From Wandonia haliotis (lineage in GTDB: Bacteria; Bacteroidota; Bacteroidia; Flavobacteriales_D; Crocinitomicaceae), in assembly GCF_039523435.1 (NCBI RefSeq), contig NZ_BAAAFH010000001.1, forward strand, positions 1-64,000: 64,000 nucleotides of DNA, in the 5' to 3' direction. A program made the position numbers and the translations under genes. The notes under the pieces are model-generated. The model was given only the letters and a program-made list of their open reading frames with translations. It had not been told where the DNA came from and searched no databases. Positions 13,432-20,338 of the stretch are shown piece by piece (position 1 is the first letter of the stretch; every line of letters starts with the position of its first letter).

Positions 13432-15156
13432 TTACAATTCTTCACGTTCAAGCCACTCCAATTCCCCCGGTAGTTCCATCGAGCAAAACTCCAGGTGAAT
13501 CACACGTCTTCGTTTTTGATTTTGCGCTTTGGAAGAAGCGTGTAATAAAAGTGGTTTCATCAACTGAACACCTCCCTCCTGCACTTCTATAGTAACAGGA
13601 GTAGCACTGGAAATAATAGCTTCTTTTTCTCCATCCGAATAACGCTGACTGTGAGAACCGGGTATAACCTTTAATGCACCATTTTTGACCGTAGCCTGAT
13701 CCAGATGCACACGAATACTAAACGTACATTTCAGAATTTCCTCGGGCGGGCATACACTCGTAATTCCATTTCTGTTGGTCCAGGAAGAAAAACCGTCCGT
13801 CTCTATCCGTTTGTTTACATTGACCGGAACATCCTGATGCCAGGTAACATACCAATTATCCGTATCAGGCTTATCAAAATAGATGGCTTTCGTCAGAAAA
13901 GCATTCTCATCCACAACCTGTACAATTTTTCTCAGGTTCCTATTCAATACAATTTTTTTCAGTTCGGGAATATCTTTCAATAACGTCCGCTTTCCAAAAG
14001 TCGGCTCATCGTGTTTATCAAAGTAAATATAAATCTTCTTCCCTATTTCCCGAATTTCCTTCCGCGTATATATATCGTTCAAAACAACATATCCATTCCG
14101 CTCCAGTTTCCTTGAAGCGGCTACCAAGTTCGGTTGGTGTAAATGTGTTCTGTATTGATCCAGCGCATTTTGTAGCTGATCCTGTATCCTCCTCCGGAGT
14201 GAACTGGGTTGTAGCACCTGAACCGTATCACCAAATCCCAAAATCAATCGTTCCAATTCAAAGTTATGGTGTACAAAAAGTTCCAGAATGATTCCATCAT
14301 CCGGCAACTGCTCCAGTACGCGTTGCGAATGGTGCAACGGCTTGGTTACGAGATATGGAGCATTTGAAGCATCTACTTTCAAAATCACCCGGTCAACATA
14401 TTTCTCGTCCATTACTGTTACACCTATCGTATTTTTATAATACGCATCTCCATCAAAAGGCTCTTCTAAAGCCTCCTTTTTCAGATCATACTCAACAGAC
14501 ACTATTCTATCCAGAGCAAGGGTTATAATACTCCCATTGCGTTTGTTTTTTCCCACAAGAAACCACCTGTTGTTATATTCTTTCAAAATAAACGGATAGA
14601 AAGTCATTTCCGAACTCTCTTTAGCTGAAAAAGATTTGTAGCGAATCTTCAAAACCAACTTTTTCACAATAGCCTGGTACAGCGCGTCCAGATGTTCCAG
14701 TCCTTTCAATCGCTCATTTTTGTCTAAATGAATGACTGCCGGTTGATGTGTTTTCTCTGTATAAATCCGATCTTCCAGTTTTTGGATAATGTCCCCCAAC
14801 TCCGAAAACAAAGAAAAATCTCTGAATTGCTTCAACATTTCCACCGATTCCGTAAGTACCTGCATATCTCCCTCATTCAAAGGAATATCTGTCATTCTGT
14901 AATCCGGGTCATCGTATTTATAATATTTCTTATCGTAAACCACAATAGGCGCATTATACCCTAGCTTATCACTCCTCATCAATTGAATATCCAATTGAAC
15001 CGTCCGTTTACTCACATTAACATCCCTGCCTTCGTATTCGTACAAAGCATCAGAACAAGCCTCAATAAGATCTTCTAATGTCCACTTATGGTACTGATTT
15101 TGCAGACATTTATCAATTGTTTTGTAACGTATCAGTGCATTTTTATTCTGAGCCAT
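13432..15156 (-). CDS. WYL-domain transcriptional regulator (wHTH-WYL-WCX) fused to a C-terminal PhyH-family 2-oxoglutarate/Fe(II) dioxygenase domain
   Basis: The N-terminus matches WYL regulators (NALIRYKTIDKCL HTH; NRWFLVGKNKRNGSIITLALDRIVSVE WYL core; WCX-like region). The C-terminal ~230 aa carry the PhyH hallmarks WHQD (His-x-Asp), GALKVIPGSH, a distal His and RRVIHLEF. It is divergent from rtcB. Confidence 0.75.
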   Translation of the reverse strand: MAQNKNALIRYKTIDKCLQNQYHKWTLEDLIEACSDALYEYEGRDVNVSKRTVQLDIQLMRSDKLGYNAPIVVYDKKYYKYDDPDYRMTDIPLNEGDMQVLTESVEMLKQFRDFSLFSELGDIIQKLEDRIYTEKTHQPAVIHLDKNERLKGLEHLDALYQAIVKKLVLKIRYKSFSAKESSEMTFYPFILKEYNNRWFLVGKNKRNGSIITLALDRIVSVEYDLKKEALEEPFDGDAYYKNTIGVTVMDEKYVDRVILKVDASNAPYLVTKPLHHSQRVLEQLPDDGIILELFVHHNFELERLILGFGDTVQVLQPSSLRRRIQDQLQNALDQYRTHLHQPNLVAASRKLERNGYVVLNDIYTRKEIREIGKKIYIYFDKHDEPTFGKRTLLKDIPELKKIVLNRNLRKIVQVVDENAFLTKAIYFDKPDTDNWYVTWHQDVPVNVNKRIETDGFSSWTNRNGITSVCPPEEILKCTFSIRVHLDQATVKNGALKVIPGSHSQRYSDGEKEAIISSATPVTIEVQEGGVQLMKPLLLHASSKAQNQKRRRVIHLEFCSMELPGELEWLEREEL

Positions 15157-15412
15157 AATCTGTAGTATCGTTCTAAAATGACTATTCGATAGTCAAAGTT
15201 AACAGCTTATTTCATTAAAAATAATGTCTCTCCTTTTGGAGAAAACAAATTTTACTCTACATTTGCAACCGATTTAAGTTTGAAGTTTACTATTAACAAA
15301 TAAAAAACCAAAGCGAAATGTTCAGTTTAATTAACATATTCTCCAGCGAGCCAGGTCAGGGACGTGTGCTTTGCGTGCTTTGGAATTCATAGATTAAAAT
15401 ATTCTGTTATGA

Positions 15413-15446
15413 AAGTCCGAAGCAATAGTTTCGGACTTTTTTTTAT
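15413..15446 (+). terminator. Intrinsic-terminator-like hairpin (AAGTCCGAA / TTCGGACTT) plus a T8 run, inside the wyl-rtcB intergenic region on the plus strand
   Basis: 9-bp perfect stem, 8-nt loop and TTTTTTTT read directly. No ORF lies upstream on this strand, so it may terminate a small RNA or leader. Confidence 0.5.
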
Positions 15447-15636
15447 CTCCATTTTACGGGTTGTAAGTTCGAAACATTGAATCCATCAATTTGTGTTACG
15501 TATTTACTTTAAAAAAATGTAAGTCAAAATTTTTGACAGTAGGTTAAGCTACTGTACTCTATTATTTTTTGAATATGAGATCTAACTCTGTAGAGGATTT
15601 TTCTCATCATTCACAGTATTTATTATTTCAGATAAA

Positions 15637-18396: not shown

Positions 18397-19767
18397 ATGA
18401 AAACAGACGGAAATACATTAATCGAATTAGGGTATCAACCAGGAAAATGGTTTGGAGAAGCATTGGATTATATCAACACACATAAACTGGAGGGAGAAAA
18501 ACTACTTCATTATCTGGATCAGTTTAAATTACCTGAACCGCTGGCTTTGAAAAAACAAGCAACAGCATTCTCTGTTAATATCCGTGCTGAACATGAATCA
18601 GAGATCGAAAACGTTTCTCAGGTGATCTCTACTATGAATGAATTAATGAAAACTCCGACACTTGTAGGTGGGACGATTATGCCGGATGCCTGCCCTACCG
18701 GAGCAATCGGACAAATCCCAGTAGGAGGCGTTGCTGTCGCAAAAAATGCGATTCATCCGGGAATGCACAGTGCAGACATTTGTTGTTCGGTTATGTTGAC
18801 AGATTATGGAAAAACAGATCCTAAACACATTCTTGATATAGCACACACCTCCACTCACTTTGGTCCCGGAGGTAGATTAAGAGGAAAACAATTTCCACTT
18901 CCTACTGTATTAAAAGAGCAGTTTATGTCAAACCCATTTCTACAATCCGATCGAATGCTATCATTAGCTCAAGAACATATGGGAACACAGGGTGATGGAA
19001 ACCACTTTCTGTATGTTGGTCGTTTAAAGTCTACCGGAAATACGGTTGTTGTGACGCATCATGGTTCACGTGCTCCCGGAGCGTTGCTCTATAATCAGGG
19101 GATGAAAATAGCTGAGAAGTTCAGACAGGACTTGTCTCCTGAAACACTAAAGCAAAATGCGTGGATTCCGTTTGATACCGAAGAAGGTAAAAACTATTGG
19201 GAGGCCTTACAGATCATTCGTGAATGGACCAAACAGAATCATACAACCATCCATGAGTTGGTTACCACCGGAGCGGGGGCCTCTGTTACTAATAGATTTT
19301 GGAATGAACACAACTTTGTATTCAAAGACGAAGATCTGTTTTATCATGCGAAAGGAGCAACACCGTTGGATACCAAATTTATGAATGACGTTACAGGTCC
19401 ACGATTAATTCCACTAAATATGTCTGAACCTGTATTGATTGTTGATGGAGAAACAACGGGGAATAATCTCGGTTTTGCGCCACATGGAGCAGGGAGAAAC
19501 ATCAGTAGGACACAGCACCGGAAAAACAAAGCTCATAAAACAAACGAAGAAGTATTTTATGAGGAAACAGAAGGTTTAGATGTTCGTTTTTTCTCCAATG
19601 AGATTGACGTTACCGAACTTCCGAGTGCATATAAAAATGCCGAAAACGTTAGAAACCAAATGAAGGAGTTTGGTCTTGGAAATGTGATTGATGAAGTAGA
19701 ACCGTATGGGTGTATTATGGCAGGTGACTGGCAAAAAAATGCTCCTTGGAAAAAACGAAAGAAGTGA
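18397..19767 (+). CDS. Divergent RtcB-family RNA ligase paralog
   Basis: RtcB-like motifs with substitutions: [18 protein letters not shown] in place of MPDAHGGYGLPIGGV, plus GDGNHF and PHGAGRN. 456 aa. Confidence 0.8.
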
Positions 19768-19947
19768 ACACTTCACACGACAATAAAACAATCGTTCTTT
19801 AAAATATTGTGTCACAACACAAAAGAAGTTGAATAGGTTACCGTATAAGTCCCCGATTCTGGTTTCTGAATAACCAAATAGTCTGATTCAGCATTGCTGC
19901 TTCAGGTGCTACTTACACTTTAACCATCAACACCTATAGCTATATGT

Positions 19948-20080
19948 TGAAGGTTCGAGTCCTTCCTGACCAAAAGGTTAGTATCTCAATTGGTAGAGAA
20001 ATAGCTTGAATTGTGTGGGTTCGAGCCCCACTCTGCAAAAGCGGATAGCTCAATTGGTAGAGCGCTGAATAGTGGATTCA
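19948..20080 (+). ncRNA. Cluster of tRNA-like modules that do not form canonical cloverleaf tRNAs. It holds two T-arms, two D-arm-like elements and an acceptor-plus-anticodon-like 5' half. Candidate tRNA-mimic ncRNA or tRNA pseudogene debris
   Basis: T-arm 1 is GAAGGTTCGAGTCCTTC followed by CTGACCA at 19948-19971. A D-arm follows at 19983-19998 (TCTCAATTGGTAGAGA). T-arm 2 is GTGGGTTCGAGCCCCAC at 20014-20030. The 5' half GCGGATAGCTCAATTGGTAGAGCGCTGAATAGTGGATTCAG lies at 20040-20080. Acceptor strands do not pair in the normal order. AGGTTAG (19974-19980) can pair 6/7 with the preceding CTGACCA, a permuted arrangement, and no anticodon arm follows it. Confidence 0.45.
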
Positions 20081-20338
20081 GTTTTCAAAAGAAGTTGATT
20101 ACTTCTAAAAATAATCACACGGGATGTTGTGACTTTTCAGTTTGTTCCTTTTTAGGACATGCAATCTGAAAATCGCCGGTTAAACAGGATATCGCCTTAA
20201 TAAAATTTCACCAATCTAATTTCATTTTTATTTGAGATAAGTAGCGTAAAATTGAATCAAGGCTTAATGTACGATCCGCAATTGACAGGTGAAAAGTTCA
20301 CAACATCTCTTGTTTGATAAACAATAAAAAAAGATAAC

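Follow-up and report, generated by a model that had tools for sequence, protein, structure and literature searches.

Only a few bacterial mechanisms for sensing damage to the translation machinery are understood, namely RtcR with tRNA halves (enterobacteria), TrcR (cyanobacteria) and PA5471.1 (Pseudomonas). RtcR senses tRNA halves (PMC7790460), and in Anabaena a regulon that includes rtcB, a slipin gene and a 26-gene tRNA L-array is repressed by TrcR and induced by translation inhibitors (PMC10272220, PMC8421152). The P. aeruginosa leader peptide PA5471.1 has been proposed to act by attenuation, upon ribosome stalling, on armZ (RtcB-like) and the adjacent PA5470 (prfH) (PMC12057347). RtcB-PrfH(-CT) has been characterized biochemically, with peptide release and resealing of 16S rRNA established for homologs (PMC9304027, PMC12829566), and the PrfH-CT subfamily rescues both toxin-damaged and non-stop ribosomes (PMC12829566). 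An association of RtcB with Band-7 and a tRNA-like RNA (b7a-tRNA, occasionally YrlA) was predicted in 2016 by Burroughs and Aravind, as summarized in bioRxiv 10.1101/312249. Here, we analyzed an RNA-repair locus of Wandonia haliotis, located in a stretch of 64,000 nucleotides (nt) of assembly GCF_039523435.1 (contig NZ_BAAAFH010000001.1, positions 1-64,000, forward strand; hereafter the window), which encodes two RtcB proteins, a PrfH, a tetratricopeptide repeat (TPR) protein, a tRNA-like RNA, an SPFH/Band-7 protein and a divergently transcribed WYL-domain regulator.

This locus is probably an island for responding to translational damage, in which two modules with separate switches now lie next to each other; two different sensors appear to do the switching. 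For comparison, 80 genomic loci (labelled L001 and so on) were fetched around rtcB2 orthologs of related genomes, and gene maps were drawn by placing the window proteins with tblastn and by clustering open reading frames (ORFs). The five ORFs listed by an earlier, sequence-only reading of this region are real, coordinates and profile searches agreeing for each of them. That reading also recognized a tRNA-like element, which it placed at the end of the locus; the element proved to be a real structured RNA, on the evidence of covariation, but it does not mark the end, since the locus extends to an SPFH/Band-7 gene that terminates at 21433. The genes and other transcribed features are as follows (aa, amino acids).

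13432-15156, minus strand: regulator with helix-turn-helix (HTH), WYL, WCX and PhyH domains, 574 aa (Pfam and Foldseek)
15637-17037, plus strand: rtcB1, RtcB 3'-phosphate RNA ligase, 466 aa (Pfam RtcB, 1.7e-81)
17048-17761, plus strand: prfH, PrfH-CT subfamily, 237 aa, with GGQ and a basic C-terminal tail (TIGR03072)
17754-18275, plus strand: TPR protein, 173 aa, about four TPR repeats and a disordered lysine-rich tail (AlphaFold2)
18397-19767, plus strand: rtcB2, divergent RtcB, 456 aa (Pfam RtcB, 9.5e-35)
19939-20081, plus strand: noncoding RNA (ncRNA), two tandem circularly permuted tRNA-like modules (RNAalifold, pair counts)
20339-21433, plus strand: SPFH/Band-7 protein, 364 aa (Pfam Band_7, 4.5e-27; 31 of the 80 loci)
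21480-21501, plus strand: terminator-like hairpin at the end of the rtcB2-ncRNA-SPFH unit (terminator scan)

Both RtcB proteins score far above the PF01139 cutoff of 27 (275 bits for RtcB-1 and 121 bits for RtcB-2), and in alignment both retain the residues equivalent to P. horikoshii D95, C98, N202/H203, H234, H329 and H404, which we take to be the Asp, Cys and His metal ligands and the guanylylated histidine. The active-site motifs are GVDIGC, GGGNHF, SHSGSRG, VHRKGAT and SHGAGR in RtcB-1, and SADICC, GDGNHF, THHGSRA, YHAKGAT and PHGAGR in RtcB-2. Both are catalytically intact at the level of residues, and ligase activity is predicted for each. The identification of RtcB-1 as a canonical RtcB thus holds, by its Pfam match and its kept catalytic residues, and RtcB-2 is, as proposed, a second and diverged RtcB, sharing 28% identity with RtcB-1 over the full length. 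Judged by its sequence, RtcB-2 is nevertheless not a degenerate copy; it is 67%-80% identical to orthologs across Flavobacteriales and Saprospiraceae. Neither protein reaches the cutoff of TIGR03073 (release_rtcB, 271.8 bits), with 158 bits for RtcB-1 and 46 bits for RtcB-2, and under NCBI criteria both are generic "RtcB family" members. An N-terminal extension of about 60-90 aa (K..G..L..LG[FY]...) is common to both proteins (15637-15820 and 18397-18560); it lies outside the region that aligns to solved RtcB structures and constitutes an uncharacterized domain.

The PrfH protein scores 221 bits against TIGR03072 (cutoff 166.65), carries its GGQ within SGGKGGQHVNK, and matches C. gingivalis PrfH (CgPrfH, PDB 9mor) with an E-value of 1e-56 over CgPrfH residues 1-218, beyond which extends the tail FGSRRQLLKQDLRTRL. 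Because ATG 17048 aligns to CgPrfH residue 1, prfH starts 10 nt past the rtcB1 stop codon, so the two genes do not overlap, contrary to what had been read; it is prfH and the TPR gene that overlap, by 8 nt. Members of the PrfH-CT subfamily are 225-250 aa long, have a basic C-terminal tail beyond the EcPrfH core, and occur in Flavobacteriia (PMC12829566), and the window protein, with 237 aa from ATG 17048, belongs among them. Its assignment as a PrfH is therefore upheld by TIGR03072 and the GGQ, but the codon-recognition domain is not simply absent, as PrfH retains an rRNA-recognition domain related to that of RF2 (PMC12829566). The helical, TPR-like ORF that follows was correctly described as uncharacterized: its sequence matches to TPR families are weak, and an AlphaFold2 model (predicted local distance difference test, pLDDT, 89) has nine helices forming about four TPR repeats. 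The family is restricted to Flavobacteriales and Saprospiraceae, has no characterized member, and conserves the lysine-rich tail in orthologs. A PDB fold search with the model returned generic TPR proteins only, and no specific function is therefore assigned to the protein.

A leader element upstream of the rtcB1-prfH-TPR cassette

The WYL gene and rtcB1 are separated by a 480-nt intergenic region, in which lies a leader of about 190 nt; with a profile built from similar intergenic regions, the conserved element, about 230 nt long, was detected in 49 loci. Leader and TPR gene accompany each other in 47 of 49 loci, the four mismatches lying without exception at locus edges. The leader stands directly upstream, on the same strand, of the first cassette gene, whatever its identity (TPR in 26 loci, rtcB1 in 11 and prfH in 4). 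The TPR gene is the one gene always found behind the leader, which makes it the most interesting uncharacterized component of the locus. The parts of the leader in the window are listed below.

15258-15265, plus strand: putative Bacteroidetes-type -7 box TACATTTG (consensus TAnnTTTG) of the leader transcript, from the sequence
15308-15314, plus strand: segment 1, CCAAAGC, just 5' of the leader ATG, pairing with segment 2 (RNAduplex)
15318-15392, plus strand: leader ORF of 24 codons, MFSLINIFSSEPGQGRVLCVLWNS followed by a stop codon; its ATG is invariant in the leader alignment (A2)
15377-15386, plus strand: segment 2, GCTTTGGAAT, within the 3' end of the leader ORF, able to pair either with segment 1 or, as a putative antiterminator, with the terminator 5' arm
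15411-15448, plus strand: intrinsic terminator, a 13-bp stem GAAAGTCCGAAGC/GTTTCGGACTTTC (segments 3 and 4) followed by T8 (terminator scan)

The block TAnnTTTGCA is conserved in alignment A2, and a -7-type box is present in every leader copy. The leader ORF has 24-28 codons in all 49 leaders save three with 33-39, and in 47 of 48 leaders segment 2 stays in the reading frame of the ATG, at a distance divisible by 3, even where lengths change. The terminator (fold z-score -3.5) is conserved in the 49 leaders and starts 23-37 nt, mostly 27-33 nt, past the leader stop codon. Segment 1 is complementary to segment 2 in about 30 of 48 leaders, with compensatory changes between groups: CCAAAG/CTTTGG in the clade of the window, CCGAAG/CTTCGG elsewhere, and CTCGAAGC/GCTTCGAG in a third group. 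Segment 2 (GCTTCGG, or GCTTTGG in the window) is also complementary to the 5' arm of the terminator, CCGAAGC. Predicted pairing free energies (dG) in the window are -11.4 for segments 1 and 2 (RNAduplex) and -13.7 for segments 2 and 3. Over 48 leaders, dG(2:3) averages -13.3 kcal/mol, compared with -4.8 +/- 2.3 when segments are shuffled, and dG(3:4), that of the terminator itself, averages -15.7. Cognate pairing is stronger than non-cognate, with 0, 5 and 0 of 2000 permutations reaching the observed means for 1:2, 2:3 and 3:4, respectively. The free leader of the window folds as the 1:2 helix plus the terminator, and a ribosome footprint placed on the start codon converts this to the antiterminator fold.

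At the sequence level, these are hallmarks of an attenuator, namely a short predicted ORF, an intrinsic terminator and alternative pairing between the ORF 3' end and the terminator 5' arm, and from them we infer a putative trp-like, ribosome-mediated attenuator. An alternative that we regard as rather doubtful is that 15235-15448 is a free-standing small RNA or small-protein gene, and that rtcB1-prfH-TPR has a promoter of its own further downstream. The element does have its own -7 box and a strong terminator, 190 nt are left before rtcB1 in the window, and footprints in the middle of the ORF do not always give the antiterminator. Against such a gene stand the strict linkage of leader and TPR cassette (47/49), always directly upstream on the same strand, and the dual complementarity of segment 2, to segment 1 and to the terminator arm, which is accompanied by compensatory changes. 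In several relatives, moreover, the spacer from terminator to first cassette ORF shrinks to 64-83 nt on the ORF maps (a rough figure, as starts are those of the longest ORFs), which is tight for an independent promoter plus a 5' untranslated region (5'UTR), and an analogous leader has been reported before armZ-prfH in Pseudomonas.

The putative WYL-linked operator and the rtcB2 module

DriD and PafBC are WYL-domain activators of DNA-damage regulons that are triggered by single-stranded nucleic acid. The regulator of the window has a WYL and a WCX domain after an N-terminal winged HTH and hence falls in the HTH-WYL-WCX class (Pfam E-values 1.7e-13 for WYL, 1.3e-14 for WCX and 1.6e-14 for PhyH). 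In an AlphaFold2 model with pLDDT 80, residues 1-340 match DriD (8tpk, 8tp8) and PafBC, with Foldseek E-values of 1e-13 to 1e-10. The C-terminal part is a PhyH-class 2-oxoglutarate/Fe(II) oxygenase with an intact HxD...H...R motif, in which H440, D442, H539 and R550/551 are invariant across 25 homologs. Foldseek matches of this domain are the small-molecule oxygenases SnoN, AviO1, HygX, FtmOx1 and EctD; an AlkB-like role in RNA repair, which we considered, finds no direct support among them. The sequence-only reading took the regulator to be divergent, fused to a dioxygenase and tied to the locus. Divergence and linkage are borne out, the WYL gene being present in 59 of 80 loci, divergent and often directly adjoining rtcB2, whereas the PhyH fusion is optional (about 17 of the 59 WYL orthologs in the sampled loci). 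The fusion recurs in at least 120 protein clusters, that of Fluviicola taffensis among them, and the N-terminal HTH is nearly invariant across WYL homologs, genomes with the canonical layout included. The WYL protein is the linked, predicted regulator of the locus.

A palindrome, TACGCAAAAnnnTTGCGYA, is common to the intergenic regions beside the WYL genes of relatives. Allowing up to two mismatches, we found 143 sites in 1.62 Mb of loci, 142 of them intergenic. Sites lie upstream of rtcB2 in 65 of 80 loci, upstream of the WYL gene (at most 120 nt from its start) in 41 of 59, and upstream of the SPFH gene (within 1.3 kb) in 19 of 30, and none of the 15 rtcB1 loci has one upstream of rtcB1. In relatives, the palindrome also precedes a pair of RlaP genes, DUF6331 and several uncharacterized island genes. 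This strong co-occurrence with the WYL gene and its presumed targets marks the palindrome as a putative operator. The corresponding elements of the window are as follows.

18289-18307, no strand assigned: putative WYL-linked operator palindrome TACGCAAAATAATTGCGCA, the single window copy, 90 nt upstream of the rtcB2 ATG
18319-18326, plus strand: putative -7 box CCTTTGTC of the rtcB2 promoter (consensus match in the sequence)
18355-18381, plus strand: stem-loop CCTCCGTCGG-CAATAGGG-CTGGCGGAG in the rtcB2 5'UTR, kept upstream of rtcB2 in many relatives
15179-15195, no strand assigned: palindrome TGACTAT-TCG-ATAGTCA with perfect arms, 22-38 nt upstream of the WYL start codon (read from the sequence)

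A motif aAnnTTTGt comes after the operator in relatives. The stem of the 5'UTR stem-loop covaries between genomes, and the element may be a cis-regulatory or protein-binding RNA. The canonical operator is absent from the WYL-rtcB1 intergenic region, and a search of the whole window with up to three mismatches returned the 18289 site only. In relatives, the canonical WYL operator occupies the position equivalent to 15179-15195; the palindrome found there in the window differs in sequence, and it may be a replacement operator or the site of a different regulator. Candidate WYL-binding sequences of the window are TACGCAAAATAATTGCGCA and TGACTATTCGATAGTCA.

This distribution bears directly on the model with which the locus was first described, a single rtcB1-prfH-TPR-rtcB2 operon transcribed from the divergent region under WYL-PhyH control. 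In its favor, all four genes are on the same strand and closely spaced, the WYL gene points away from them, and a terminator scan predicts no terminator on the plus strand between 18276 and 20339; as this interval includes the junction of the TPR gene and rtcB2, read-through from the cassette into the rtcB2 unit is possible. However, the operator is missing from the WYL-rtcB1 region and found only before rtcB2 (rtcB1 0/15), a strong terminator with its own leader separates the WYL gene and rtcB1, and in relatives the cassette is found downstream of rtcB2, elsewhere, or not at all. We therefore judge the single operon unlikely. In the closest relative, L001, the WYL gene, the operator and rtcB2 are adjacent, with no rtcB1-prfH-TPR cassette between them, and the simplest reading is that insertion of the cassette separated the WYL gene of the window from its usual target promoter.

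Downstream of rtcB2, the ncRNA of the window is built as follows.

19939-20005, plus strand: module 1, with closing stem 19939-43/20001-05, T-arm 19949-65, acceptor-like hairpin 19966-81 and D-arm 19984-99
20015-20063, plus strand: module 2, with T-arm 20015-31, acceptor-like hairpin 20032-45 and D-arm 20048-63
20065-81, plus strand: anticodon-like stem-loop, also part of module 2, with the 7-nt loop UAGUGGA, the loop sequence varying between species

Homologs were collected by iterative nhmmer, a strict regular expression for the order of T-loop and D-loop being too narrow; true tRNA arrays came up as false positives. Of the 31 loci that carry SPFH, 27 have an element of about 150 nt, located some 60-750 nt upstream of the SPFH gene. 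In an alignment of 27 sequences (A1), it forms eight helices with 38 base pairs, 28 of which show compensatory changes; 97.9% of cells are paired, against 37%-47% with slid partners, and 0 of 500 shuffles reach the observed values. The element is a real structured RNA, predicted to consist of two tandem circularly permuted tRNA mimics. A normal-order tRNA reading of its middle was rejected, the acceptor stem being 42.6% paired, which is background, and ARAGORN reports no tRNA in the locus, 19768-20338 included. Rfam YrlA (RF02553) matches at 19941-20003 and 20014-20063 with 40.4 and 30.7 bits, below the gathering score of 69, so the RNA is not classed as YrlA; the matches span model positions 23-85 and 30-81 only and leave the Ro-binding helix unmatched. 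By Pfam, TROVE/Ro60 was found neither in the ORFs of the locus nor in 19 recurrent island gene clusters, several of which have no match of any kind. A direct repeat, CAAAAGAAGTTGA, lies on either side of the RNA (at about 19821-19833 and 20086-20098) and could represent processing sites or chance.

That the region is instead the decaying, functionless remnant of a tRNA array (pseudo-tRNAs) is highly improbable. The islands of relatives do carry long tRNA arrays, the middle of the L001 element matches the Rfam tRNA model with 34 bits, and the anticodon-like loop varies between species. Decay is nonetheless hard to square with 28 of 38 pairs changing in a compensatory manner across 27 orthologs at 97.9% pairing, with a fixed position upstream of SPFH in 27 of 31 loci, or with permuted acceptor-like hairpins that are 93%-98% paired where the normal acceptor stem stays at the background of 42.6%.

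Modules across genomes and a proposed response

Across the 80 loci, the WYL gene is present in 59, the WYL-PhyH fusion in about 17, TPR in 49, SPFH in 31, PrfH in 22 and RtcB-1 in about 15. The exact gene order of the window recurs in none of the 80. Several relatives have prfH-TPR without rtcB1, and rtcB2 is then the sole nearby ligase. As module order varies between genomes, the layout of the window is one lineage's arrangement rather than a fixed four-gene unit. Because the same modules recur around rtcB2 orthologs in the 80 genomes, their adjacency is far beyond chance, and the locus is a genuine cluster of predicted RNA-repair and translation-rescue genes, with modules mostly of known kinds.

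An island devoted mainly to anti-phage defense, or linked to a toxin, rather than to repair is very improbable. PADLOC WYL models do match the regulator, and WYL regulators commonly govern defense islands (PMC4012209). However, the WYL protein is the only protein of the locus with a PADLOC match, the other parts are a ligase, a release factor, a scaffold and a tRNA mimic, and neither a nuclease nor a toxin was found within 10.4-23 kb.

We propose instead a response to translational damage, reasoning from the gene identities, the intact active sites, the covarying RNA structures and the linkage of operator and leader. Module A (15258-18275), the leader plus rtcB1-prfH-TPR, would be induced by ribosome stalling. 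Ribosomes that reach the leader stop codon would cover segment 2, allowing the terminator to form and keeping the cassette off, whereas an early stall in the leader, such as a cleaved decoding center, cut or depleted tRNAs or antibiotics could each bring about, would let segment 2 pair with the 5' arm of the terminator and RNA polymerase read through. PrfH-CT would then rescue damaged or non-stop ribosomes by freeing their peptide, and the 16S rRNA would be resealed by an RtcB. More speculatively, the TPR protein, with its lysine tail, could be a ribosome- or RNA-binding adaptor.

Module B (18289-21501), comprising the operator, rtcB2, the double tRNA mimic and SPFH, would be under WYL control. 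The WYL protein would bind the palindrome, which overlaps the -33 region of the putative rtcB2 promoter. The sensing part of RtcR of E. coli and Salmonella is a CARF domain; in its place, the WYL domain would bind damaged nucleic-acid fragments and thereby change the activity of the regulator. RtcB-2 would reseal broken tRNA or rRNA, and an SPFH oligomer together with the tRNA-like RNA may act as a scaffold, cofactor or decoy, in line with the Band-7/b7a-tRNA and Ro/Y RNA proposals.

Several points weigh against this proposal. All co-occurrence counts are conditional on the presence of rtcB2, which was the search query. The promoters are consensus matches, and the WYL protein may act as either an activator or a repressor. 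In the window, the WYL gene lacks a canonical operator near its own start, so its regulation may differ from that of relatives. Ribosome footprints placed within the leader ORF, away from its start codon, give mixed results in equilibrium folding, and the 190 nt from leader terminator to rtcB1 contain a TCAATTTG motif, which makes an independent promoter possible. In the L036/L054 clade, segments 1 and 2 pair weakly (-1.5 to -4.5 kcal/mol), so clades may differ in attenuator logic. Finally, the motifs of the leader peptide (PKG..., LRD) coincide with RNA stems, so the conservation seen may be that of the RNA.

A further reading, possible but clearly more tentative than the two-module response, is a previously undescribed dual-sensor island of Flavobacteriales, with a leader attenuator and a WYL damage sensor. 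The attenuator would read ribosome stalling directly, and the TPR protein, the product of the only universal gene of the cassette, would be a new damaged-ribosome factor, bringing in PrfH and/or RtcB. Damaged RNA fragments would be detected by a DriD/PafBC-type WYL sensor, in some cases with a fused oxygenase; through TACGCAAAAnnnTTGCGYA, this sensor would control RtcB-2, an SPFH cage loaded with the double tRNA mimic and, in relatives, RlaP. The spare-tRNA arrays of relatives may join the response, though no operator lies directly upstream of them.

These arrays fill gene-free gaps in the islands of relatives and consist of 10-18 bona fide tRNA genes on the same strand in a conserved order, Lys-Ser-Ser-Asn-Cys-Tyr-Asp-Pro...Leu-Leu-Arg-Gln-Ile-His-Phe. 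Cyanobacteria have similar arrays, the stress-induced "L-arrays", which have also been noted in Bacteroidetes (PMC8421152). The island of the window has no such array. Other recurrent island genes are two RlaP (PF10127) nucleotidyltransferases, DUF6331 (also fused to the N-terminus of some RtcB-2 proteins), an RNase-H-like PF04308 protein, a calcineurin-like phosphoesterase, an RNase T-like exonuclease, and DUF434 with DUF5616. Examples of both are given here by locus.

tRNA arrays: L020 12116-14253; L013 13023-14526; L034 13323-14840; L038 45-1888; L066 19691-21226; L024 17720-19469; L069 4471-5762; L010 12325-13567; L021 17794-19088; L073 6645-8712; L018 2969-5314; L026 16481-18267
Recurrent modules: L005 8013-9859; L018 13619-15420; L009 9681-9989; L038 1922-2407; L078 7069-7635; L050 6303-6854; L032 3595-4308

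In the window, G+C content is 0.40-0.43 over 15000-20000 and 0.32-0.35 in the flanking 10 kb. Pfam matches in the scanned flanks are an AraC-type regulator, an NAD(P)-binding protein and MBOAT; integrases and transposases are not among them.

Comparison with described systems

Precedents exist for nearly every part of the locus, and each of its protein modules either belongs to a described kind or varies one. Calling the system undescribed, as the sequence-only reading did, is too strong, given RtcB-PrfH, the RtcB-Band-7-tRNA-like RNA association and the Anabaena regulon. In the literature consulted, the seemingly new elements are a WYL regulator and a putative operator organizing RtcB islands, a putative leader-attenuator in Bacteroidota, a TPR protein with a poly-lysine tail and the double-permuted topology of a Band-7-associated RNA, some of which may already be known. 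The locus introduces no new principle. It offers sharply testable regulatory predictions and two conserved uncharacterized components, the TPR protein and the double tRNA mimic, both linked to already characterized enzymes. The WYL operator is sharply defined and therefore easy to test, the leader would read ribosome stalling directly, and as Fluviicola taffensis, which has a complete genome, encodes the WYL-PhyH fusion, the predictions might be testable in a cultured organism.

For module A, one close system is the RtcB2-PrfH pair of E. coli ATCC 25922, with the PrfH-CT of C. gingivalis (PMC9304027, PMC9223846, PMC12829566); as in this pair, an RtcB gene directly precedes prfH in the window. 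The window PrfH passes TIGR03072, matches CgPrfH and fits the size class of Flavobacteriia PrfH-CT proteins, whereas the window differs in the TPR gene that follows, in the leader-terminator that precedes, and in an RtcB-1 under the TIGR03073 cutoff (158 versus 272 bits). The PA5471.1 leader shares with that of the window a short ORF and downstream terminators before an RtcB-like gene and prfH. The window leader belongs to another phylum, however, and the likeness is one of layout, the leader mechanism proposed here being computational; moreover, the downstream gene in Pseudomonas encodes an efflux-pump anti-repressor, while the window has a catalytically intact RtcB and a TPR protein.

For module B, the Band-7/b7a-tRNA system, as far as the bioRxiv summary describes it, similarly has RtcB, SPFH/Band-7 and a tRNA-like ncRNA with T- and D-arms in one neighborhood. 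Set against that summary, the window differs in an RNA of two permuted modules, the second with an anticodon-like stem-loop, and in its WYL regulator; Rfam holds no b7a-tRNA family. YrlA of the Salmonella rsr-yrlBA-rtcBA operon, partner of Rsr (Ro60), is likewise an RNA next to rtcB (PMC7790460, RF02553). In the window, by contrast, the RNA scores below threshold, its module is duplicated, RtcA and RtcR are absent, and TROVE was not found in the ORFs and clusters scanned. Pfam detected no RtcA, RtcR, sigma54-activator or CARF domain among the ORFs of 10451-23036, in agreement with the earlier view that the layout is not that of rtcBA/rtcR.

The TrcR regulon resembles the predicted regulon of the window in placing rtcB and an SPFH/slipin gene under one factor with a conserved operator, in the tRNA arrays found in relatives of the window, and in a predicted response to damaged or inhibited translation. 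TrcR is, however, a ribbon-helix-helix protein rather than an HTH-WYL-WCX protein with or without PhyH, the operators differ, and the window genes are clustered and lack a tRNA array. With DriD and PafBC, the window regulator shares the HTH-WYL-WCX architecture and a palindromic site over a putative upstream promoter element, but its putative targets are RNA-repair genes and a PhyH-type oxygenase is fused to its C-terminus. Together, the locus of the window and about 80 related islands suggest that Bacteroidota solve the sensing of translation damage with different parts.

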